DNA of 24,624 bases. Source: an uncultured virus (IMG/VR IMGVR_UViG_3300011475_000006) (taxonomy: Duplodnaviria > Heunggongvirae > Uroviricota > Caudoviricetes). The stretch is taken from the IMG/VR virus record IMGVR_UViG_3300011475_000006, one strand, 5' to 3'. Position 1 is the first letter of the stretch; the number at the start of each line of letters is the position of its first letter. Positions 2,974 through 15,177 of this stretch are shown here, in pieces. The notes beneath the pieces are model-generated. The model saw only the letters and a list, made by a program, of their open reading frames with translations, ran no database searches and was not told the origin of the DNA. The translations under genes and the position numbers were made by a program.

Positions 2974-3063
2974 TAAAACGCTTTCAGAAACATCCATTCT
3001 GCAGGATGCTTAAGAAGCATATGTGCAGTATGAAGAATCTGCCACGTAATCAAATGAATATAT

Positions 3064-3255
3064 TCATTTGAATGGTACAGGAAGAGGGCCTTCAATCACC
3101 TCGGCCTCTCCGTTATCGCAGATGTCGTCACCCTGTGTCAGATGCCAAATACCATTAAAAATAAGTCCCGTCTCAAGGTCTTCAGTAACGCCATTGCTGT
3201 AGTAAGCAACCTGAATCCTGCCGTTGTGCTGAATCCAGTAGTAACCTTCTTGCAT
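3064..3255 (-). CDS. Small prophage hypothetical protein
   Basis: AAGGAG SD, 63 aa MQEGYYWIQHNG..., acidic and aromatic-rich; resembles ORFs commonly found between Q and lysis genes. Confidence 0.7.
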   Translation of the reverse strand: MQEGYYWIQHNGRIQVAYYSNGVTEDLETGLIFNGIWHLTQGDDICDNGEAEVIEGPLPVPFK

Positions 3256-3380
3256 GATCATCTCCTTAACATGATGAGATGAGTATATTGCTGAGTTGAG
3301 ATGAATGGCGTTAGATATACTCAGGATTTATTTCTGTCATGAGGATAGGACTTCCTCATCACTGTTGCCGAACTACTCAG

Positions 3381-3692
3381 TCAGATCTCATTCATCTCAG
3401 ATACTTCAAACTGAAAGACATAGGGATCAGAAAGAAGCTCAAATTGCTCATCGTCTGGATAGGTTACCGCTACGTGGTAATTTTCACCTGCGAAAGCCTT
3501 AATGGATGAGAGATCACGCCAATAAGTTGCCAGAAAGAAATGCTCCCATTCTCCCTGTCGTTCACGCCGTACGTATGCACCTTGGTTGCCATTAACACTT
3601 TTAGAGTGCTTAACTCCCGTTAATTCAAGATGCGCAGCAAACCCATCACCGTGTCGTACTGGTACGCAACCATGCCATGTTCTTACAATCAT
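3381..3692 (-). CDS. Antibiotic biosynthesis monooxygenase (ABM)-like dimeric alpha-beta barrel protein
   Basis: MIVRTWHG start, GNQGAYV and TYWRDLSSIKAFAG motifs; GGAGG SD. Confidence 0.75.
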   Translation of the reverse strand: MIVRTWHGCVPVRHGDGFAAHLELTGVKHSKSVNGNQGAYVRRERQGEWEHFFLATYWRDLSSIKAFAGENYHVAVTYPDDEQFELLSDPYVFQFEVSEMNEI

Positions 3693-3784
3693 ACCCCTCC
3701 ATTAAATGTCTGAAAGTGAATTTATATTCACATTATCATAATATTTAATCTCTTTGGGGGTTTTAAAATGCATTCTGACGTCAT

Positions 3785-3817
3785 AAAAAAGCCCCACGGG
3801 GTTAACCGCAGGGCTTT
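3785..3817 (-). terminator. tR'-like terminator
   Basis: AAAGCCC...GGGCTTT hairpin with T6 on the minus strand, about 55 nt after the pR' start. Confidence 0.8.
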
Positions 3818-3830
3818 AAACGAAGGCAAT

Positions 3831-3875
3831 AACCCATCGTTAGAGCAAAATTACCACAGATTCGGGAAAAGTAAA
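3831..3875 (-). promoter_or_regulatory. Late promoter pR' with sigma70-dependent pause element (qut)
   Basis: TTTACT-N16-TAATTT (with TGn extension), then AACGATGGGTT from 3841, matching the start of the lambda pR' transcript. Confidence 0.85.
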
Positions 3876-3897
3876 TAGTTCACGATAAATTCACGCC

Positions 3898-4731
3898 CTA
3901 TTTTGTAATCTGCTTAAGCTGCGTTTCAGCCCAGGCCTCTTCGATATCAAACTTGGTGATTAGCTGATCGTAAAATGGCTTAACAGATTTCTTCCATGTA
4001 TCGAGGCTGATTGCATCCGTTATCTGACACACCGCGGCGTAAGCCTCAGTTGAAGGAATTCGCTCAAACCCTCGCCCACTGCAGCGCTTGCAATCAGCAA
4101 GTACCGGAACGCCCTGCTGCTCTGTAAGAGCCTGATTCACAGCTTTCCCGCGGCCATGACAATCTTTACAGGCACAACTTACTACCTTCTTACCCTTACA
4201 CTGAGGGCATAGAACGCGCGCTACCTCCCTGACCTGTCTGCGCAACTCATACTCAGAAGGACGAATATGCTCGACGCCCATGTGCAAAGACATCTTCACG
4301 AACTTCTTATCTTTTGTCGGCGTGTGAGACTTCATGCTGAAAACCTCAGCGTCAATAAACCCTTCCCCATTGCAGCCATCGCACTGTTTCACGCTGGCTG
4401 CGCTGCGGGAATAGTCCTCGAACGCGAAGGTGGCCAGCTGATGCATCACCAGTGGTTTAAGCCCGGCGTCCAGTTTGCGCAGCGCAGCAACCCGATCGCA
4501 TTTGGTCAGCGCGTACTGGGCCAATAACTCGATCGCCCTCTCCCGGTCATTGTTGCTGATACCCATCTTCCCGAGAAAGGCGCTATAACCCAATGCTGCC
4601 CGTTCCTGCGTCATGCCCATAGCGGCCATGATATCCGTTCCGGTTAATGAGTCTGACGCCGTAGCGCGCGGAGAGTCACTAATCATTGTCGATTTGGCGA
4701 AGTGATATTTGAGGATATTATCAAGATTCAT
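3898..4731 (-). CDS. Q: Late antitermination protein Q (lambda Q family, extended zinc-finger region)
   Basis: [23 protein letters not shown] closely matches the lambda Q N-terminus; CxxC pairs; lies directly upstream of pR'. Confidence 0.93.
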
Positions 4732-5090
4732 GCGGTCTCCAGCTCGGTAATGGTGAGTTCTAATTTCCCGCCCTTAACGACAGGCATTTTCACAACGCGA
4801 TAGTCGACAACCTGGCAGTCATCCAGCCAGAACCCCGCCTTAGTTAAAGCGTCAAAAGCTGCCTTCTGCAGGTTATCCAGATCACGGCGCCGACGGTCAG
4901 GCATGTGACATTCAATTCGGATTTTGAGTGGTGCAGCCGTTCGGATATTAAGCCGGGCGCTTCGAATGACACTGGCGACCGCATAGCGATACGCGACGCC
5001 ATCAGCGCTAATGTGAGTGCGCCCGCGGTTATGCCGGTAATACCGGTTATTGCTCGGCGGCCAGGGCAAAGTGATTTGATATGTCTTCAT
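4728..5090 (-). CDS. rusA: Holliday junction resolvase RusA
   Basis: [23 protein letters not shown] and DDCQV motifs; 120 aa from MKTYQ. Confidence 0.96.
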
Positions 5091-5092
5091 GT

Positions 5093-5302
5093 TCACCCCC
5101 ATAACCGGTTTCGCCAGCGGCTATCCGGGCGCGCTGGTGTGTTAGATGTCGGAAGGAATGCACTGACAGTCCAGGTCACGTAATCCGGGTTAAGGCTGCG
5201 CTCAACCCGTACGCCGCGCGCCTTGTAACGCTTAACCAGTTCGTCGGCCTGTTCGGTACTGCAATCGGTGTGGTGGAACCAGGTATATTTCATGTCCATC
5301 AC
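5093..5302 (-). CDS. Conserved nin-region hypothetical protein
   Basis: Tightly packed between DUF1367 and rusA in the same orientation. Confidence 0.7.
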
Positions 5303-5901
5303 CCCGCAAAGCCAAGCAGCTGCGTGGCGAGGTTTTCGGCCTCGTCACGGCTGCGGAATGAACGGGACAGGACCCAGCGCCAAAGAACATCGAGCGCAGC
5401 TTTATAGAGCTGCTGAAACTCGAGTTCGTCCATGTTTGCGAATGAGATGCTTCGAGGATGCTTTTTGAGTGTTCCGTCAGGCAGCTGAATGGCATCAAAG
5501 TGCCCTGCCTCGACGATTACCCATGAGCGGTAAGCATCAAAGGATTTGCAAAGGCTAATGCCATTTGTGACCCGGCGGTATGCAACCTGCTCAAGGTACT
5601 GCTCAGCAGCATCAATCAGCGCCCCCTCATTACCGCCATAAGAAGCCAGGAACTTGGCGTAGCCGATGATCAGCTTCCGCTCGTTGCTAGAGATAGCCCC
5701 GCCGGTTGGTTCCCAGTATTCAAAACCGAGATTCAGAAGCGAGAAAAAGCGCCGGTGAAATGCCGGGTTTCGTACCCGCCTGAACTCGGCAACAAGAACA
5801 TCACCGAGCCGGGTTCTGGATTGCAGAATATCGCTGGTCTCGGGTGTGGCCGGGATCAGTATTCCTGAGTGGTGTTTGATAAGTTGTAATTCTAGCGCCA
5901 T
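5299..5901 (-). CDS. DUF1367 family nin-region protein
   Basis: RVRNPAFHRRFFSLLNLGFEYWEP and PRSISFANMDELEFQQLY motifs; GGAGAG SD. Confidence 0.8.
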   Translation of the reverse strand: MALELQLIKHHSGILIPATPETSDILQSRTRLGDVLVAEFRRVRNPAFHRRFFSLLNLGFEYWEPTGGAISSNERKLIIGYAKFLASYGGNEGALIDAAEQYLEQVAYRRVTNGISLCKSFDAYRSWVIVEAGHFDAIQLPDGTLKKHPRSISFANMDELEFQQLYKAALDVLWRWVLSRSFRSRDEAENLATQLLGFAG

Positions 5902-5940
5902 GGTTCTCTCCGTGGCGCATCAGGTATAGGGTGTTCAGGC

Positions 5941-6069
5941 CTATGCAAATATGATATCAGAGGGCGGGATAAGCCGATAGCCAAGACCTGTAGCAAACTG
6001 CATAAACCCATCCGGTGTCTAGGTTTGCTCGTCCTTGGGGAGTGTACGCAATAAAATCAGTTTATTGAT
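5941..6069 (-). pseudogene. Possible eroded 3' remnant of a small nin-region gene
   Basis: Minus frame reads INKLILLRTLPKDEQT*TPDGFMQFATGLGYRLIPPSDIIFA* with an in-frame TAG at 6019-6021, at the edge of the AT-rich insert. Confidence 0.3.
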
Positions 6070-6266
6070 GCTTATAGTTCGGATATCTTAACAAGATACT
6101 TAGTCATAAAAATCAAGATATTACCTAATATCTCTCTTATAGTCTTACTTGCATCATTTGTGAACCCAATGTAATCTAGTAGGATTATTCACCAAAAGAT
6201 TCTTAGGAACTTTTAAAACTTTACAAAATTACAACATATCTTATAGCTGAGATATGTGCGGTAGCT

Positions 6267-9200
6267 ATGTTTTATATTAATAGGGACTTAATAGTGAAAA
6301 GAAGAAATAAAATTTCTGTTAAAAACATTAATTTTGGTAAAACCCTAATACCTCCGTTGAGTAGAGCAAGTTTATCTTTTGTAAATCAAGAATCAATTCC
6401 AATCGCACTGACTAAGTTCTTACATTCCAAAAACTATACAAAGATCGAAAATGAACTACCTTTTCTAATAAGATCTAAAAAAGTTAAGGAGTCAATGAAT
6501 GCTTTTACATATGATTTTGAAACAATGGGTTTGAAATCCATCCATGTTGACTTGCCATTCAAAACGTTAATATCACTATACAAAAATATATACGAGAGTG
6601 AAGAAGATAGACTTAAGACCTATGTAAGGTTAAGAGATGAAATAGAAACTGCATTAGCGAATGGTTGTTATGACAAACTTAATGAATTGCTTGATCAAGT
6701 GAAAAATGAGTTGGGTGAGTCGTTGTGGTATGCACGGATAAAACTACTCTCCTTATATCTTAATGGTGAAGCAGGTGAGATGCAGGATTTTTGTACAACA
6801 TTAAAATCCAGAACATCTGATAGCATGTCATTATTCATAATCCACTACTTTATAATTTTAACACAATCAATTGATCCAAGAAGTGTTATTGAGGTTGTAT
6901 TAAACAAACAGTTGAAAGAACTGAGATCAGCCGGCTTAATCGATTATGCGAATCTGACACAAGAGTTTTTAGTTCCTGCGCATATGAAAGAAGTAAAACT
7001 CACACCTTATATGCTCGAATTGTTTCAGAAGGTCAATATAATTGATCAGTATAACTTAATAACTACAAGTCTCATGTCTTTCTTGATAGATGTAAGGAAA
7101 GAATTGGACGCTGATGATAAAACCATATTTAAAGGATTATTTAATGTTCTTCAACGCATCACTAATGACTATAAAATCAACAACTTCCTCAGTTCATCCG
7201 TTCTCGAAACCGAGAGCGAATTAAATATTCATATTGCAAAATCCACTTCATCTAAATATTGTGAAACACCACCCATCAACACTCTTAGAGGGGTCTTTAA
7301 TAAACCCATAAAAAATCTCATCGAAATATATGAACTTTCAAAACGTTCGACACAGTCCTTTGATGAGTTAAGAGCACACATTACACGTCTAAATGGTACT
7401 GAAGCTTGTTTTTGGTTAGAAAGTGAATTAATAAAAGCAGTTCCATATTATATTGCGGAAAGTAAAGCTAAAAATATAGAAATATTAAACTCCATTCTTA
7501 CAAGGAGTGTTGTTCCTGATGAACTGAATAAACTTGCGATTATGGTATCAGCAGACAACTCCTTCTATAAAACAGACGAAATTAATTCGCCCGATTTAAG
7601 TGACTTTTATATAGAACAGGCCAACACTCCCGAATTAAATTTAGGATTTACTAAAAAGTCAATTGAAAATAACATTCAACATTTTATACATGAACAGGAA
7701 CTTGATAAAGCAATAAACTTGGCAGCGAAGGTATTAGTTCATAAAGAAGAAACTTATTTAAGCCTTCCACTTAAGCTGTTGATAAAAAAAGTTGAATCTG
7801 AATTCAAACCAACTTTAGACTATCTTATAGTTAGTCATTTTTATAAAAAATACATATCTTCTAATAAATCCACCCTACATAATGAGTTATTTGAAGAATA
7901 CATCATTGCAAATAATGTAACCAAACCCTCGGAGTTATTTTTAAACAGTACAGCAACCTCGAAAAAATTATATTTTTTCTTCAAAGAAATATGTTCCCTT
8001 GAAACCATGGATTTCCTTTCTGATTTCCAAAATAGTGATGAACTGAGGGCGGAGCGACTTCGACTATTGGATTACCTTTATACAAATGGAACAATTTCTA
8101 AAGATGAATTCTATAAAGAAGCAGATGAAATTGTAAATCAATTTATACTTGACTCTTCAGCAAGTCATTTTCAGATTAGTAAAATCTATGTTGACGAGAT
8201 ATCGCTTAAGAAAAAATTAAATAAAGAGATCTCAACTCTTTTCGAGTCATATAAATATGCCGAGGATTCAAATGAGGATTTAGAGGTAGTGACTCTCGAT
8301 GGCGATGAGAGCGCACCAATCCAAGCCTTCGTTCGTGGGGCCAAAAGTGATATCCTTTTAAAATCAATTGGACTTATGTTAGAAGCATTTCTATATGATG
8401 AAAACCATGGTTTAGACACTAATTTGTCTACAGAAATAAGACATGGTTTCTTTTCAAATTATTTGAGATCTGATCTGGAGTCTCGTCGACTTATCTCTGA
8501 AATAGATGCCGATGGAAACTTTAAGAGCATGACCTATTGGGATGATATGTATATAAACATATTATCTCCAGCTTTCTTAAATGATATAACTGAAGAGTTC
8601 AAAGTTTTCACAAATGGATTCAACGAAGCCATTAGAGAAGCGCAGGCTTGGATGAAGGTTAGTAGCTCACATGAAGATAAAAATGCTTTATTCATCTATA
8701 ACGTATATGTAAATCAATATGACTATTTTAAATTATGGATGGAATACTGTGAGACTGCAGAAGAGTTTATGGATGAAGTATTTTCTATGCTTTGGGAGAT
8801 CACTGATGACATTTTGATACTTATGCGCGAGAAAATAAATGTCGATCTAAAAGGTAAAGTCCAGCAACTATTTTATGACCTATTGAACCGGTTAGATTTA
8901 ATAAAAGGCGGAGCGGTACTTACCGATTTAATGTCAAATATCATCGCTTCTCAGAATAAGACAAGTGAGATAATAAGTGAAATATCTGATTGGTTCAATA
9001 TAAACCAACACAGAGACTTTTCTCAGCAAACTCTTTCTCAGGTCATAAACGTCTCAATAAATTGCTTAGAAAAAATCAAAGGTAAAAACATCAATATAAA
9101 TAAAACTTTCAGCAATGAACTTAATAATTATATGATTGATGGATTCACTGTTAAAAAATTCATCTTGGCTTTGATTAATATTTTTGAGAACAGCATCAAG

Positions 9201-9500
9201 CACTCAGGACTGAATAATGAACTACAAATTGACATTAAAGTTTTCCTACTAGATTCGAATATTTGCATTGACATTGCAAATAACTTATCTGATCAGGTTG
9301 CTGTTAGTCTAACTATAGAAAAAATAGAGTCTTTAAACAACTTATTAATATCACCGTATTCATTGGAGTTAATGCGTGAAGAAGGTGGCACTGGATTAGC
9401 CAAAGCAAGCAACTATATGAAACAAGCAAATCGCGGATACAATTTAATTGTTTTTTGTGAACATCAAAAATTCATAACAAGGTTAATAAAAAATGACTGA
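6267..9500 (+). CDS. Large atypical histidine-kinase-like protein with a C-terminal GHKL/HATPase domain
   Basis: N-box LINIFENSIKHSG (N975), G2-box EEGGTGL (G1040), candidate phospho-His in STEIRHG (H726); long helical N-terminus with no obvious TM; AT-rich. Confidence 0.75.
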   Translation: MFYINRDLIVKRRNKISVKNINFGKTLIPPLSRASLSFVNQESIPIALTKFLHSKNYTKIENELPFLIRSKKVKESMNAFTYDFETMGLKSIHVDLPFKTLISLYKNIYESEEDRLKTYVRLRDEIETALANGCYDKLNELLDQVKNELGESLWYARIKLLSLYLNGEAGEMQDFCTTLKSRTSDSMSLFIIHYFIILTQSIDPRSVIEVVLNKQLKELRSAGLIDYANLTQEFLVPAHMKEVKLTPYMLELFQKVNIIDQYNLITTSLMSFLIDVRKELDADDKTIFKGLFNVLQRITNDYKINNFLSSSVLETESELNIHIAKSTSSKYCETPPINTLRGVFNKPIKNLIEIYELSKRSTQSFDELRAHITRLNGTEACFWLESELIKAVPYYIAESKAKNIEILNSILTRSVVPDELNKLAIMVSADNSFYKTDEINSPDLSDFYIEQANTPELNLGFTKKSIENNIQHFIHEQELDKAINLAAKVLVHKEETYLSLPLKLLIKKVESEFKPTLDYLIVSHFYKKYISSNKSTLHNELFEEYIIANNVTKPSELFLNSTATSKKLYFFFKEICSLETMDFLSDFQNSDELRAERLRLLDYLYTNGTISKDEFYKEADEIVNQFILDSSASHFQISKIYVDEISLKKKLNKEISTLFESYKYAEDSNEDLEVVTLDGDESAPIQAFVRGAKSDILLKSIGLMLEAFLYDENHGLDTNLSTEIRHGFFSNYLRSDLESRRLISEIDADGNFKSMTYWDDMYINILSPAFLNDITEEFKVFTNGFNEAIREAQAWMKVSSSHEDKNALFIYNVYVNQYDYFKLWMEYCETAEEFMDEVFSMLWEITDDILILMREKINVDLKGKVQQLFYDLLNRLDLIKGGAVLTDLMSNIIASQNKTSEIISEISDWFNINQHRDFSQQTLSQVINVSINCLEKIKGKNININKTFSNELNNYMIDGFTVKKFILALINIFENSIKHSGLNNELQIDIKVFLLDSNICIDIANNLSDQVAVSLTIEKIESLNNLLISPYSLELMREEGGTGLAKASNYMKQANRGYNLIVFCEHQKFITRLIKND

Positions 9501-9945
9501 TATACTAATTGTCGAAGACAATTCACATAAACGTGAAAAGGTTATCGATTATATCCTTGAGCTTCTGCCCGATGCAATCATAGACCAAGCATTTTCATTT
9601 AGCTCAGGTAGTAAATTAGCTGTCGATAATAATTATGACATTATAATTCTCGATATTAGCTTACCTACTTATGATAAAACTGAAAATGATACTGGCGGTA
9701 GGAATCGAGCATTTGGAGGGCACGAGATTGCAAGGAAGATTATACGAAGAAAACTTAATACAAAGATTATATTCATTACACAATTTGATTCATTTAGTGA
9801 TCAAGATCGCTCACACTCTATCGATTCCTTAGAGGAATTATTAAAAAATGATTGCGGTGATAATTTTGTAGGTCTCGTGCGGTATGACAGTTCTAAATAC
9901 TCGTGGAAAGAGAAATTGAGTGTTCTTTTGGATATTGAATCATGA
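9493..9945 (+). CDS. Stand-alone response regulator receiver (REC) protein
   Basis: ILIVED, DIIILDISLP (D54), IIFITQ; 8-bp overlap with the upstream gene. Confidence 0.88.
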   Translation: MTDILIVEDNSHKREKVIDYILELLPDAIIDQAFSFSSGSKLAVDNNYDIIILDISLPTYDKTENDTGGRNRAFGGHEIARKIIRRKLNTKIIFITQFDSFSDQDRSHSIDSLEELLKNDCGDNFVGLVRYDSSKYSWKEKLSVLLDIES

Positions 9946-11117
9946 GAGTTATTATAGTCGACGATGACGAAATTCGTAGTAATAACATAAAAGCATGGCT
10001 TATAGAGAAGAACATATCTTCTAGTGATGTTGTCACTATAGTATCCTGCACTAGCTCGGCCAGGACCTTGTTAAAGAACTTTTTTTATGACGTACTAATT
10101 TTAGATGTAGTTTTGCCTAAAAGGGATGGTGATAAATCTAAGTGGACAAATGGCATTGAACTTCTTAATTACATTAATACATCTTCGTTAGCAAAAAAAC
10201 CGAGTAAAATAATTGGCATTACGGCCTATAGTGATGATATTCAAAATTTTAAAAATGAGTTTGAGAGATATTGTTTTACAGTTGTTGAAGTAGTTCGAGA
10301 GAGCGAGGATTGGAAATTAAAATTCCTTAACGTTTTCAATTACCAATCATCATCTAAGCTAGCGAGTTTAGATGATGAGAAGCCTATCATAGCTATCACA
10401 GTACACGGAATAAGAACTTTTGGTAATTGGCAAGAAAAACTGAGATCGATGATACAAAGTCGAGTATCATACATTGATTTTCAAACTTATAAATATGGTT
10501 ACTTTGCAGGAGTCAATTTTTTTACACCCTTAGTTAGAAACATACAAATAAAAAGGCTGAAAGTAAGACTTTTAGATTTATTTAAGGCGAATCATGATAA
10601 ACAATTTGTTTTCTATGCGCATAGCTTTGGCACATACTTAGCAGTAAGAGCTATTGATGACATCATAAAAAGCGGAATTGAAGTTCCACAATTAACATTG
10701 GTACTTGCTGGTAGCGTGCTCCCTTCAAATTATAACCTCAATCACATTCTTGAACATAATAAAAAGAATGTCATTATAAATGATTGCGGCAACAATGATT
10801 ATGTTCTGTGGATTAGCGAAGCACTTGTGCCCTCAACAGGTATGGCTGGTAGAACAGGTTTTTATGGAGTGAATAATTCCAGACTCGTTAATAGATACCA
10901 CCAAGGAAATCATAGTCATTATTTTGAGAATGAAGGTTTCATGGAAAAATACTGGCTACCTATACTTTGGAAAGAAACCTTAATAGGAAATACTGATATA
11001 AGACCGTTTTCATTCATTGAGCATGGTATTTTAGAACAATTAGTGGTTTTTTCACGTAAGTTGAAGTTCGCGTATCCATTACTAGCCATTTTCATTTTAT
11101 ATTATTTATTGCTGTAA
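9942..11117 (+). CDS. REC domain fused to an alpha/beta-hydrolase with a C-terminal hydrophobic anchor
   Basis: VIIVDDD / DVLILDVVLP (D55) / IIGITAY receiver; VHGI oxyanion loop, AHSFG elbow (S228), candidate D286 and H324; tail FAYPLLAIFILYYLLL; ATGA overlap. Confidence 0.82.
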   Translation: MRVIIVDDDEIRSNNIKAWLIEKNISSSDVVTIVSCTSSARTLLKNFFYDVLILDVVLPKRDGDKSKWTNGIELLNYINTSSLAKKPSKIIGITAYSDDIQNFKNEFERYCFTVVEVVRESEDWKLKFLNVFNYQSSSKLASLDDEKPIIAITVHGIRTFGNWQEKLRSMIQSRVSYIDFQTYKYGYFAGVNFFTPLVRNIQIKRLKVRLLDLFKANHDKQFVFYAHSFGTYLAVRAIDDIIKSGIEVPQLTLVLAGSVLPSNYNLNHILEHNKKNVIINDCGNNDYVLWISEALVPSTGMAGRTGFYGVNNSRLVNRYHQGNHSHYFENEGFMEKYWLPILWKETLIGNTDIRPFSFIEHGILEQLVVFSRKLKFAYPLLAIFILYYLLL

Positions 11118-11186
11118 ATATCGCTATATCTTCTAGAAATATATTTGGCTTCCTATTAGTTAGTAATATTTTTTTTCGTTAAGCCC

Positions 11187-11220
11187 TTACCCTTCAGGTG
11201 ATAAATAACCTGAAGGGTAA
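11187..11220. terminator. 13-bp perfect inverted repeat between the convergent cassette and P
   Basis: TTACCCTTCAGGT-N8-ACCTGAAGGGTAA; no adjacent U-tract on either strand. Confidence 0.5.
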
Positions 11221-11359
11221 CAGTTCATTCTGACATAATAATGCCCTCCCCATGCATCTCAAAATAGTTCACACTCGCTCTTAGCCTTGGGTGCTTTATT
11301 TTTCCTCAATTCAACAATCTCGGGTGATTTCGTCGCTCCGCACTATCAGTCGGCTAAAA

Positions 11360-12040
11360 CTACCCGCCAGATTTCATTCGTCCATATTTCACTTTGAGCA
11401 GTTCAGCTGGCGTTGGCCCCTTCGGAGCCACTGTCGCGGCCAGCGCCCGTCGAACAGGTGGAATCGGCTTCCCAGCCACCACCCGCCTTTCCCACATATT
11501 CATAATCTCGCCAGCTTCACGCTCAAGCTCTTTGTGGCTCAGTTGGCCATCGGTTCCACGGCGACGCAACTCGAGGCAGATGTGGTAATAAACCGGCTTC
11601 GGCCAGGGATACTGCTCACTGCTCGGGTACCGGAATACCAGCTTACGCCACTTCCAGTATTCAGCCATGACGTCAGCAGTGGTGATCCCCAGCACGCAGC
11701 GCCCTTCCCTGCACCACTTGATGAACTGGCCTGGCGAAGGCAGAAATGGGCGCTCCTGGCGCCGTACCATGAGCATACCGGCTTCAACCTGCTCCAGAGT
11801 GGTGATCCCGTTTTCTTTGAAGGCCAGCACCCACTGGCGGCGGATCTCGTTAACATCTTCCTGACTGCGATTAACCAGGCTTGCCGGGAACGCAGCTGCC
11901 AGCTGTACGAATAGCCCGTTGATAATCTGCGCCACCTGCTGCGTTTGTTCGCGTTCGGTGTACTGCTCAGGCAGGTTGTGCGCCACACGGCGTGCCTGTT
12001 CCCGGTCAAAACTGCGAATGTTCTCTGCGAGGTTTTTCAT
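11360..12040 (-). CDS. P: Replication protein P (lambda P family helicase loader)
   Basis: EIRRQWVLAFKENGITTLEQV and RQERPFLPSPGQFIKWC motifs; ATGA overlap with O. Confidence 0.92.
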   Translation of the reverse strand: MKNLAENIRSFDREQARRVAHNLPEQYTEREQTQQVAQIINGLFVQLAAAFPASLVNRSQEDVNEIRRQWVLAFKENGITTLEQVEAGMLMVRRQERPFLPSPGQFIKWCREGRCVLGITTADVMAEYWKWRKLVFRYPSSEQYPWPKPVYYHICLELRRRGTDGQLSHKELEREAGEIMNMWERRVVAGKPIPPVRRALAATVAPKGPTPAELLKVKYGRMKSGG

Positions 12041-12954
12041 TCAAGCACCCCGTCAATCCAGTCGGTGTTATGCAGGTCAACGCCGCCCCGGTAAGGTTTT
12101 GCCGTTCCGGTTGCACGCAGCCGTTTGGTAGTGAGCTGATCCCACTGTTTGCGCAGACTTGACGGGCTCAGGATGTTGTCTCTCCAGAACTCGTCCCGGT
12201 TGGCCCACAGGAACAGGTCGCAGATTTCGTAGTGCGTGCGATTGTCCTGGACACGCATCAGCCTGATGGTGTTTGCCCATTCAGCCCAGTTGGGTTCGGA
12301 TAGCGAGGCGTTGACCGTAAGAAGCCTGTCGTAAATCCAGCGAGCGGCCTTGAGGTCATCAGCTGATCCCCATGATTTACCTGCAGGGGTGTATATCCCG
12401 GCGGCAGCTTCTGGATGGCGTGAGAGAAACTTTTGAGTTTTCTGGTTTCGGGATTCGTCAGAATTCCGAGACGAGGATCTTTTAATATTGTTCTTGTTAT
12501 AGTCTTGGGTGTCTACCGTTTCCGGGAAGGTTTTTCCCGTTTTCGGTAACACTTTTCCCGATTTCGGGAAGACTTTTCCCGTTTTCGGTTTGTCTAAAAT
12601 CCAGGCTGAAAGGTCAGTATTTATACCGACCGTTTTCATCACGCCCTGCTTCTGACTGAAGATAATTTTGCGTTCTGCGAGTGACTTGAGCGCATCAGAA
12701 ACGTGGGAATCACTCAGCGCTGTAAGCTCAGCAATAACCGTGTTTGTAACGCGGTCCTGTTTCTTGTTCCAGCCGTAGGTAAGCCAGATCACCGCTTCAA
12801 AACACTGCCACTCACGGCCTGACATTCTCAGACGAGGCTTGAGCTGTTGGATCTCGTTAGCGACCTTGGTATACCCATTCGACAGGTCGGCCATACGACC
12901 TCCCGGTTGTTCGGTTCTGTGGGGGAAATTGATAATTTCAGCTGTGTTTGACAT
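12037..12954 (-). CDS. O: Replication initiator O (lambda O family)
   Basis: ADLSNGYTKVAN, TYGWNKKQD and FWRDNILSPSSLRKQWDQL motifs; internal iterons; GGAG SD before MSNTAEII. Confidence 0.92.
   Translation of the reverse strand: MSNTAEIINFPHRTEQPGGRMADLSNGYTKVANEIQQLKPRLRMSGREWQCFEAVIWLTYGWNKKQDRVTNTVIAELTALSDSHVSDALKSLAERKIIFSQKQGVMKTVGINTDLSAWILDKPKTGKVFPKSGKVLPKTGKTFPETVDTQDYNKNNIKRSSSRNSDESRNQKTQKFLSRHPEAAAGIYTPAGKSWGSADDLKAARWIYDRLLTVNASLSEPNWAEWANTIRLMRVQDNRTHYEICDLFLWANRDEFWRDNILSPSSLRKQWDQLTTKRLRATGTAKPYRGGVDLHNTDWIDGVLE
12478..12588. repeat. Replication origin: 21-bp iterons plus AT-rich flank inside O
   Basis: Units start at 12516, 12537, 12558 and 12579 (partial), each with a CCG-N4-CGG core; AT-rich stretch at about 12478-12502. 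Confidence 0.88.
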
Positions 12955-13031
12955 ACTTAGCTCCGCAATTACACTCCGTTTTTGCACCTGAAAGCCGTTG
13001 GTGTTCGAGCACCGCGGCTTTCGCCTTTTTT
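12948..13031 (+). ncRNA. OOP-like antisense RNA unit (promoter + short hairpin RNA)
   Basis: TTGACA-N16-TACACT (12948-12975), then a GAAAGCCG...CGGCTTTC hairpin and T6; same position and orientation as lambda oop. Confidence 0.6.
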
Positions 13032-13038
13032 GAAGTTT

Positions 13039-13581
13039 TCACATTGCCCCCAGCATGGTTGTGACCATCGTCATCAGCGGACCTACTTGCTCCGGCATGA
13101 GGCGGAACAGCGACGCTATCCCCTCACTTACCTCTTTCAGTTTCTGATGCTCTGGAGCGTCCAGCAGGACAGCCTGCTTAGCCTCGGCACACTCTTTCAT
13201 CGCGGAGGCGATCAGCGACATTGTGTCGTTCTTCGGCGCCAGACGGTTACGGAACTCCAGCGGCAGGACGGCCATGATTGCCGGGGCCAGTTGGCGGACA
13301 TTCTCACGGTACTGCTCAGAGTCGAAACGGTTATCCAAGAAGCGAAACAGCTTCTGGCGCGCACGGCTGATATCCTCCGGGAAGCTGATGGCTGTTCCGC
13401 CCCGCTCCCGGTATTCGTAGATGATCAGCGCTGACACGACGTCCTGATTGTTCAGCGCCGACGACCACGCCCGGACTACTTCGCGGATCTTTTCGTGGTC
13501 TGGAGCCGCCTTAGGTTGAGCGCGGTTTATCATTTCTCCTGGGTGTATTCTGGTATTCTGTTGATACGCAAGTGAATGCAT
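13039..13581 (-). CDS. CII-position regulator, YdaT family
   Basis: Between cro and O; VRAWSS...RARQKLFRFLD...LAPAIMAVLPLEFR pattern. Confidence 0.8.
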   Translation of the reverse strand: MHSLAYQQNTRIHPGEMINRAQPKAAPDHEKIREVVRAWSSALNNQDVVSALIIYEYRERGGTAISFPEDISRARQKLFRFLDNRFDSEQYRENVRQLAPAIMAVLPLEFRNRLAPKNDTMSLIASAMKECAEAKQAVLLDAPEHQKLKEVSEGIASLFRLMPEQVGPLMTMVTTMLGAM

Positions 13582-14691: not shown

Positions 14692-15177
14692 ATGAAAAAG
14701 TTAGTTATTGCAGCGACAGCTGCTGTGCTTCTCTCTGGGTGCATGTCCATTCCTAAACCAGTAAACCTCCCGCCGTTCCCGCAGGCCGAGTATGACAAGT
14801 TGAAGCTTGATGGCTCTGAGAAACTGACTGGTCAGGCCTTCCTCAAGACAATGGGTGGAGACGTAAAAGTAGCGGCCGGCAGCCAGGTGATCCTGATGCC
14901 AAAAACCTCTTATACCGATTTCCAGTTCACCACATGCATGGGGATGACCCGCTGCGACAAAGAAGATATGCGTGCCGCGAAGTATGAGAAGGTCACCATT
15001 GCTGATGCCCAGGGCAAGTTTGAGTTTGATAACATTGCCCCAGGCGAATATTACGTCCAGACCAGCGTGACCTGGATGCGTCCATCCACTTACGGGTTGG
15101 TGACTGAAGGCGGCGCGCTGATGTCAGCCGCATCAGTAAAAGCAGGCCAAAACAATACAGTGATGGTTACCAGGTAA
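14692..15177 (+). CDS. Lipoprotein with a carboxypeptidase-regulatory-like beta-sandwich
   Basis: Lipobox LSGC; ADAQGKFEFDNIAPGEYYV motif; AAGGA SD; directly downstream of cI. Confidence 0.8.
   Translation: MKKLVIAATAAVLLSGCMSIPKPVNLPPFPQAEYDKLKLDGSEKLTGQAFLKTMGGDVKVAAGSQVILMPKTSYTDFQFTTCMGMTRCDKEDMRAAKYEKVTIADAQGKFEFDNIAPGEYYVQTSVTWMRPSTYGLVTEGGALMSAASVKAGQNNTVMVTR

Follow-up and report, generated by a model that had tools for sequence, protein, structure and literature searches.

A probable hydrolase-type Detocs operon carried as reverse-oriented cargo in a lambdoid prophage

A three-gene, AT-rich cassette in an uncultured-virus record (IMG/VR IMGVR_UViG_3300011475_000006; the whole stretch of 24,624 nucleotides that was analysed is called the window here) is very probably an operon of Detocs, the DtcA/DtcB/DtcC defence system named by Rousset et al. 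2023 (bioRxiv 10.1101/2023.01.24.525353). It would be of the hydrolase-effector subtype, carried as accessory cargo between gene P and a DUF1367/NinB-like gene of a lambdoid prophage and running antisense to the phage genes. For the list of known defence systems the gain is small: Detocs, its hydrolase variant included, is published and covered by defence-finding tools, and all three genes are flagged by PADLOC; only the prophage slot and the presence of the hydrolase domain on WD40 and TPR proteins go beyond the ordinary. Judged from its sequence, a clean, intact hydrolase-type Detocs within an enterobacterial lambdoid prophage would mean that a temperate phage arms its lysogen, and this copy is convenient for study in E. 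coli of both the hydrolase substrate and the trigger of DtcA.

Identification of the operon

In the published description of Detocs, DtcA is a sensor kinase with TPRs, DtcB is a stand-alone receiver that is proposed to act as a phosphate buffer and whose Asp mutant is toxic in an effector-dependent manner, and DtcC joins a receiver to a PNP ATP nucleosidase (bioRxiv 10.1101/2023.01.24.525353). The effector is PNP in 80% of operons and an endonuclease or a transmembrane protein in the remainder; the Detocs of Enterobacter cloacae JD6301, which has a transmembrane alpha/beta hydrolase, gave E. coli efficient protection against diverse phages, and in the Detocs of Vibrio alginolyticus UCD-32C the substitutions DtcA H645A and DtcC D58A abolished defence (bioRxiv 10.1101/2023.01.24.525353). 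That defence needs the kinase His and the receiver Asp, and that a DtcB Asp mutant is toxic, is reported there for the PNP type only.

All three proteins of the window match PDC-M60, a PADLOC candidate system that serves here as a proxy for the Detocs authors' own hidden Markov models: DtcA with E 3e-43, DtcB with E 3e-35 over its full length, and DtcC with E 2e-28 over its receiver only (residues 1-141, i.e. the first 140 of 407 positions of PDC-M60C). A full-length match to PDC-M60C was found in 1 of 401 class-level genomes, in an operon whose products are a protein of 961 aa, a receiver of 148 aa and a protein of 389 aa in which a receiver is joined to PNP_UDP_1; PDC-M60C thus describes a receiver with a PNP nucleosidase attached, which ties PDC-M60 to canonical Detocs. 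When the DtcA profile was aligned by hhalign with the 961-aa DtcA of this PNP-type operon, the result was a probability of 95.3 and E 2e-8 over 376 columns at about 19% identity; the RIRHG/EIRHG motif, the N-box and the EEGxSG motif (H, N and G boxes) fall in register between the two DtcA clades. DtcB is 30% identical to the 148-aa DtcB of that operon (E 3e-11), and DtcC aligns with the PNP-type DtcC through the receiver only (E 3e-6). By these alignments of DtcA, DtcB and the DtcC receiver, the window operon is therefore homologous to canonical Detocs and has another effector.

The remaining features of Detocs are found as well: the gene order kinase, lone receiver, receiver-effector; a soluble DtcA; receivers that bear the Asp; and an effector of a described type. 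The open reading frames (ORFs; Table 1) all lie on the + strand, dtcA and dtcB overlapping by 8 bp (read directly as ATGACTGA) and dtcB and dtcC by 4 bp (ATGA); overlaps of 8 and 4 bp are typical of translational coupling. Chance ORFs are excluded, because three long overlapping ORFs lie in DNA of 32% GC and have hundreds of full-length homologues. The operon is intact, and it is a member of the named hydrolase subtype of Detocs, a subtype already tested in a relative.

The original prediction had described most of this layout. It proposed three AT-rich genes with 8- and 4-bp overlaps, reversed with respect to the phage genes between P and DUF1367, with which the ORF calls, the GC content and the flanks agree; a first gene with a C-terminal GHKL ATPase and no transmembrane sensor; a lone receiver, for which Response_reg is the sole domain match; a third gene with receiver, Ser-Asp-His alpha/beta hydrolase and hydrophobic end, all of which were found; and no DNA-binding output domain, none being detected by Pfam or NCBIfam. 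The PADLOC search that it called for returned PDC-M60 for all three proteins. What did not survive is its premise that the cassette is no named system, for the operon falls within Detocs, whose transmembrane alpha/beta-hydrolase subtype is reported to defend E. coli (bioRxiv 10.1101/2023.01.24.525353).

By its published description, the JD6301 operon, GenBank JDWH01000005.1, is like that of the window in its order dtcA-dtcB-dtcC, in a receiver-fused alpha/beta hydrolase that replaces PNP and bears a hydrophobic C-terminal segment, and in its enterobacterial host; the window copy lies inside a lambdoid prophage and is known from sequence alone. The UCD-32C system (i.e. PDC-M60) shares with the window a homologous kinase, buffer receiver and effector receiver and, presumably, the same His-to-Asp activation logic, but its effector belongs to the PNP-family nucleosidases and cleaves ATP and dATP, whereas the effector of the window is an unrelated Ser-Asp-His hydrolase with a putative membrane tail, and the window DtcA is only distantly related to the PNP-type kinase. 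Classical regulatory two-component systems, of which BaeSR is the comparison system in bioRxiv 10.1101/2023.01.24.525353, also have the histidine-kinase catalytic fold and CheY-like receivers with an acidic pocket and a phospho-acceptor Asp; in contrast to them, the window operon lacks both a membrane sensor domain and a DNA-binding output and has a buffer receiver in addition, and its DtcA has an atypically long His region and leaves the Pfam HisKA and HATPase_c models silent. The missing DNA-binding output speaks against a two-component system that regulates transcription, residues 146-345 of DtcC having the fold of an alpha/beta hydrolase. In the literature searched, the term 'Detocs_hydrolase' was absent, and no study of the mechanism or substrate of a Detocs hydrolase effector, or of what triggers DtcA, turned up.

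Kinase and receivers

The AlphaFold2 (AF2) model of DtcA, built from a 49-sequence alignment with a predicted local distance difference test score (pLDDT) of 81.9, is all-helical from about residue 40 to 630, continues with a helical region that holds His726, and ends in an alpha/beta catalytic ATP-binding domain at about 916-1077. Histidine kinases, related GHKL kinases or catalytic-domain relatives fill all the top 50 VIA rows for this model (best KdpD, Z 15.6), and by Foldseek the C-terminus matches the catalytic (CA) domain of ThkA with TMt 0.74; in the predicted structure, the C-terminus of DtcA is a histidine-kinase catalytic fold. Residues S721, R725, H726, N975, G1043 and K1046 are invariant in the 49 sequences. 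KdpD was also the sole NCBIfam match (E 0.14). No hydrophobic or transmembrane segment was found in DtcA, the best 19-residue Kyte-Doolittle mean being 1.3.

For the N-terminus there are hints of TPRs, namely BamD at E 0.17 and one relative that its source calls a TPR protein. DtcA relatives bear the precomputed family PF27260, named Y4jQ in Atlas, and the Atlas look-alikes for the N-terminus, with scores of at most 0.84, are a lead only.

In the stand-alone receiver DtcB, residues E8, D9, D54 and T96 are invariant across 22 sequences. By alignment, both receiver families (the DtcC receiver is encoded at 9942-10370) are without an invariant lysine at the customary place: in DtcC that place is taken by a near-invariant Glu116, while in DtcB Lys13 of helix 1 is invariant.

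The receiver-hydrolase effector

The DtcC model (pLDDT 86.2, from a 32-sequence family alignment) begins with a CheY-like receiver at residues 1-144 (VIA Z 16.7, root-mean-square deviation 1.9, 119 residues aligned). The VIA neighbours of the following domain (residues 146-346) are a rumen lipase (Z 15.4), the carboxylesterase 1auo (15.2), the thioesterase TesA (15.0) and, both at Z 14.8, the Legionella phospholipase PlaB and palmitoyl-protein thioesterase; Foldseek concurs on the fold, with modest E-values. The motif YAHSFGT surrounds Ser228, and 68 of 68 distinct family members share D55, T94, H155, G156, S228, D286 and H324 as invariant residues. As modelled, the C-terminal part of DtcC is a classical alpha/beta hydrolase with the triad Ser228-Asp286-His324. 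The residues that had been singled out for mutation at the outset, i.e. H726 and N975 of DtcA, D54 of DtcB, and D55 and S228 of DtcC, all turned out to be invariant columns in the family alignments.

The most hydrophobic 17-mer of DtcC is residues 374-390 (Kyte-Doolittle mean 1.86), and 27 of 32 relatives likewise have their hydrophobic maximum (by 17-mer) within the last ~35 residues; DtcC is presumably anchored in the membrane by this tail of 16-17 residues. Together, the hydrophobic tail and the lipase- or phospholipase-like predicted fold suggest membrane lipids as the target, and it is on the fold class and this tail that we base our guess of a lipid substrate. Neither Pfam nor NCBIfam detects a DNA-binding domain in DtcA, DtcB or DtcC, and the NCBIfam matches to the receiver part lie far under their cut-offs.

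CapV, the patatin-family effector of the cyclic-oligonucleotide-based antiphage signalling system (CBASS), is a lipid hydrolase that kills the infected cell when its upstream sensor fires; it is activated by a cyclic nucleotide and has the patatin fold with a Ser-Asp dyad. The likeness to CapV drawn at the outset is an analogy of outcome and probably does not extend to the fold: in place of a cyclic-nucleotide trigger and a patatin dyad, DtcC would combine phosphotransfer with a classical alpha/beta-hydrolase triad. No patatin-family match was obtained for the three proteins in Pfam at E <= 1, and the best folds are classical alpha/beta hydrolases, a list in which the absence of patatins does not by itself decide the matter.

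Proposed mechanism and alternative explanations

The best-supported account is the Detocs model carried over to the window operon by homology. The soluble DtcA, with its helical-repeat N-terminus of ~600 residues as the presumed sensor, would respond to infection by another phage with autophosphorylation on His726; the phosphate would pass to Asp55 of the DtcC receiver and switch on the Ser228-Asp286-His324 hydrolase, which the C-terminal hydrophobic tail would hold at the inner membrane. There the hydrolase would most likely act as an esterase or phospholipase on membrane lipids, and the infected cell would be arrested or killed before progeny are released (abortive infection). Asp54 of DtcB would compete for the phosphate and drain leaky signal, which would leave the uninfected lysogen unharmed. 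We infer both this sink role of the window DtcB and expression of the operon in the lysogen.

The scheme first put forward for the cassette, in which a cytoplasmic kinase senses a phage product and, by His-Asp transfer, signals to a membrane hydrolase under receiver control that would kill or arrest the cell, is essentially the published Detocs model (bioRxiv 10.1101/2023.01.24.525353). For the lone receiver that scheme allowed either a relay or a sink; the published data, which concern the PNP type only, favour the sink and not the relay (bioRxiv 10.1101/2023.01.24.525353).

Several observations weigh against a working hydrolase-type Detocs. The Pfam scan of DtcA returned nothing, HisKA and HATPase_c included, and the DtcA family profile reached the PDB with E 0.07 at best, to the N-box of KdpD; because the sequence-only evidence for a kinase is weak, the kinase call rests on predicted structure, motif conservation and Detocs homology. 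The His726 region is embedded in ~270 residues of helices, and the usual DHp domain is much shorter. Receivers usually carry a lysine after strand 5; neither the DtcB nor the DtcC family shows an invariant lysine there, and the Pfam receiver matches of both proteins end at profile position 82-87 of 111. The hydrophobic tail of DtcC is short (~16-17 residues, mean 1.86), and among the nearest folds thioesterases and carboxylesterases stand level with lipases in Z. A consensus scan of the leader at 6010..6266 found no sigma-70-like site on the + strand. Finally, PADLOC matches (E <= 1e-10) near 17 homologous operons amount to 6 of 130 neighbouring ORFs at 5 of the 17 loci, a modest signal that stands without a baseline.

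The level Z scores bear most directly on the substrate. It is possible, though we hold it to be distinctly the lesser chance, that the operon is Detocs and that its hydrolase cuts a non-lipid ester or thioester (in an acylated protein, a cell-wall precursor or a small metabolite), the tail serving only to localise or regulate the enzyme and the outcome being growth arrest with no membrane damage. The carboxylesterase, TesA and palmitoyl-protein thioesterase equal the lipases and phospholipases in Z, which favours such a substrate, as do the weak Pfam matches, which comprise Lipase_3 for DtcC beyond its receiver (E 0.028) and DUF900, Abhydrolase_8 and others for its relatives; in addition, the hydrolase domain appears, from sequence, to work without a tail in its fusions with WD40 or TPR proteins. 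Against it, the tail keeps its position in 27 of 32 family members, the best-matching folds include those of lipases and phospholipases, one relative matches the model of Tle3, a type VI secretion system (T6SS) phospholipase, at 4e-5, and the published effector is classed as transmembrane and grouped with cell-killing effectors (bioRxiv 10.1101/2023.01.24.525353).

A non-defensive two-component circuit over a membrane esterase, serving host or prophage physiology (envelope remodelling, lysis timing or prophage maintenance) and merely resembling Detocs, is very improbable. Such a circuit would fit the non-defence genes in the same slot of two related records (the nearest genome compared, G001, and phage PHB10) and the 124 of 130 neighbours of homologous operons that have no PADLOC match, but it is opposed by the Detocs homology of all three proteins, by the hydrolase-type relative that defends E. 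coli (bioRxiv 10.1101/2023.01.24.525353), by the lack of a DNA-binding or other regulatory output, and by an operon that is sporadic, low in GC and mobile, with at least 18 full-length loci across 185,579 species and copies on viral contigs and plasmids. That the operon is a decaying or silent passenger, non-working in this lysogen, is less likely still: the promoter that the consensus scan did not find, a degraded-looking copy in Leclercia and a split dtcA in Pseudomonas speak for it, and against it stand three frames open at full family length with translational-coupling overlaps, all invariant catalytic and phospho-transfer residues being kept.

Distribution of hydrolase-type Detocs

A large protein collection contains 294 homologues of DtcC at E <= 1e-3; a cluster that takes its names from Citrobacter freundii, Klebsiella sp. 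and Serratia is closest, with 79% identity, and next come Enterobacter asburiae, bugandensis and roggenkampii with 70%. A pattern scan of one genome per species (185,579 species), in which counts are lower bounds, gave at least 56 loci that match the DtcC alignment, 18 with the receiver included and 38 with the hydrolase alone; the same locus search with the single DtcC sequence as query returned no loci. In all 18 receiver-including loci, which come from Beta- and Gammaproteobacteria and one Clostridia metagenome-assembled genome, homologues of DtcA and DtcB lie directly upstream in the same order. Two related operons look damaged: that of Leclercia adecarboxylata (L011 6302-11034) has dtcA broken into ORFs of 135-505 aa and a shortened dtcC, and that of a Pseudomonas sp. 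(L015 6219-9562) has dtcA split into ORFs of 383 and 717 aa.

DtcA relatives with the LSxEIRH motif occur at 30 metagenome loci and 5 viral-contig loci, the window's own record included, and are followed by a gene of ~150 aa and then one of ~390 aa. The 21 third genes tested were all of ~390 aa; 17 of them have an alpha/beta-hydrolase Pfam match (E <= 0.01), 4 a receiver only, and none of the 21 a PNP domain. The hydrolase type is a deep, self-contained clade of Detocs. Since PNP is missing from these 21 genes, the effector swap lies between deep Detocs clades and not between near relatives, and the exchange of the third gene's effector with the first two genes kept, which the original note proposed to look for, was not seen within the close clade.

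Two viral contigs place hydrolase-type Detocs beside phage genes. On one (L095:6462-11444) it has a Q-like gene on one side and, on the other, the endolysin and terminase genes of a different lambdoid phage; on the other (L094:4521-9433) it adjoins integrase and transposase fragments and myovirus tail genes. On the question, raised at the outset, of whether homologues cluster in defence islands, there is the modest, baseline-free signal of 6 in 130 ORFs given above. Megablast of 6000-11300 found no match in complete E. coli genomes or deposited phages, and sensitive blastn against E. coli gave a 147-bp match of 72% in 8 of 5426 genomes and nothing more. With tblastn, DtcC had no match in 50,697 phage records and matched 25 plasmid records, with at most 38% identity among the ten matches listed. 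The DtcC profile found 0 of 401 family-level genomes at E <= 1e-40, a screen that scored 4 candidates per genome with no positive control and from which we draw no inference.

The P/DUF1367 slot

In the nearest genome compared, G001, the flanks are 88-91% identical to those of the window up to position 6009 and from 11373 on, and the slot, bounded by P (L062 1275-9221), holds a different insert of 7.9 kb with DUF1304, MFS, DUF4440, GNAT, BLUF-EAL, glyoxalase and DinI genes, in which PADLOC found no match. The slot of E. coli 210205630, again bounded by P (L101, NZ_CP015912.1 9604-16231), holds genes annotated as DinI-like, hypothetical, HEPN-domain, SEC-C-domain and restriction endonuclease. 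Phage PHB10 (L100, MK524177.1, 9604 onward) has metabolic and LysR genes after DUF1367, with no P within the stretch examined. The slot between P and DUF1367 is a swap site in this prophage lineage, its cargo being defence-like in one E. coli strain and non-defence in two other related records; the P-side interval is thus a variable cargo site, as originally suggested, with the proviso that the cargo is not always defensive.

The hydrolase domain outside Detocs

In the 38 hydrolase-only loci (within L017-L056), the DtcC-type domain is the N-terminus of proteins of ~880-1300 aa; examples of such hydrolase-plus-repeat proteins are L027:9938-12916, L032:1054-4188 and L038:9962-12967. When 20 of the hydrolase-only proteins were scanned, C-terminal WD40 propellers were found in 11, TPRs in 1, and no Pfam match in 8. 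The Ser, Asp and His are retained in 21 of 21 sequences of the aligned hydrolase-only set, the window's own counted.

This layout of hydrolase plus repeat sensor could mark another conflict system. More broadly, and tentatively, the Ser-Asp-His hydrolase found in DtcC may serve as a portable immune 'warhead' with more than one mode of gating, by a phosphorylated receiver and a membrane tail in Detocs versus WD40 or TPR arrays as possible direct sensors; we consider this conceivable and somewhat doubtful. The hydrolase-WD40/TPR set is much larger and, as far as we have seen, undescribed. If the idea of a portable warhead is right, the prophage copy would be an enterobacterial entry point to a new membrane-directed abortive-infection chemistry and to sensing by the repeat domain of DtcA, and temperate phages would trade such systems through the P/ninB slot.

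Prophage setting

The cassette is surrounded by a lambdoid prophage, in which the genes for replication, nin and lysis are on the - strand, opposite to the cassette. From left to right, the order is an Ivy-like gene, Rz, lysozyme, holin, Q, RusA, DUF1367/NinB-like, the cassette, P, O, a YdaT/CII-like gene and a Cro-like gene; CI, RecE, RecT, a Dam-type methylase and the integrase then follow on the + strand. The GC content is 0.30-0.35 in each 500-bp window over 6001-11000, compared with 0.53-0.55 at 4001-6000 on the left and 0.49-0.58 at 11501-13500 on the right.

Table 1. Coordinates of the operon, its junctions and neighbouring prophage genes in the window.
Feature	Coordinates	Strand	Description and evidence
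dtcA	6267..9500	+	1077 aa, predicted cytoplasmic sensor histidine kinase; PADLOC PDC-M60A E 3e-43
dtcB	9493..9945	+	150 aa, stand-alone receiver; Response_reg E 2e-7, sole Pfam domain
dtcC	9942..11117	+	391 aa; receiver 1-144, predicted alpha/beta hydrolase 146-345, hydrophobic C-terminal tail ~374-391; Response_reg E 3e-8
Leader, left junction of cargo	6010..6266	+	AT-rich; similarity to G001 stops at 6009; presumed promoter region of the operon
Trailer, right junction of cargo	11118..11372	.	similarity to G001 returns at 11373, at the 3' end of P
DUF1367, NinB-like	5299-5901	-	PF07105 E 7e-89; PHROG NinB/Orf
lambda P	11360-12040	-	PF06992 E 2e-47
Q	3898-4731	-	prophage gene left of the cassette

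The promoter of the operon presumably lies within the leader. Downstream, 70 bp past the dtcC stop, is a perfect 12-bp inverted repeat (11187-11198 and 11209-11220) with a 10-nt loop; the terminator scan did not flag 11187-11220, and no T run follows the repeat.

Other parts of the prophage may carry accessory genes as well. An ORF of the Ivy family (inhibitor of vertebrate lysozyme; 426-869, - strand, PF08816 E 3e-19) just past Rz is a second accessory gene of the phage. Between Q and holin the GC content falls to 0.41-0.43 (3001-4000), and within this dip a 103-aa ORF (3381-3692, - strand) with no PHROG or Pfam match may mark a further cargo slot. Directly after the CI gene, a position often occupied by genes expressed in the lysogen, there is a 161-aa ORF (14692-15177, + strand) that matches PHROG 14789 (unknown function) at E 4e-69 and, weakly, carboxypeptidase-regulatory-like folds.

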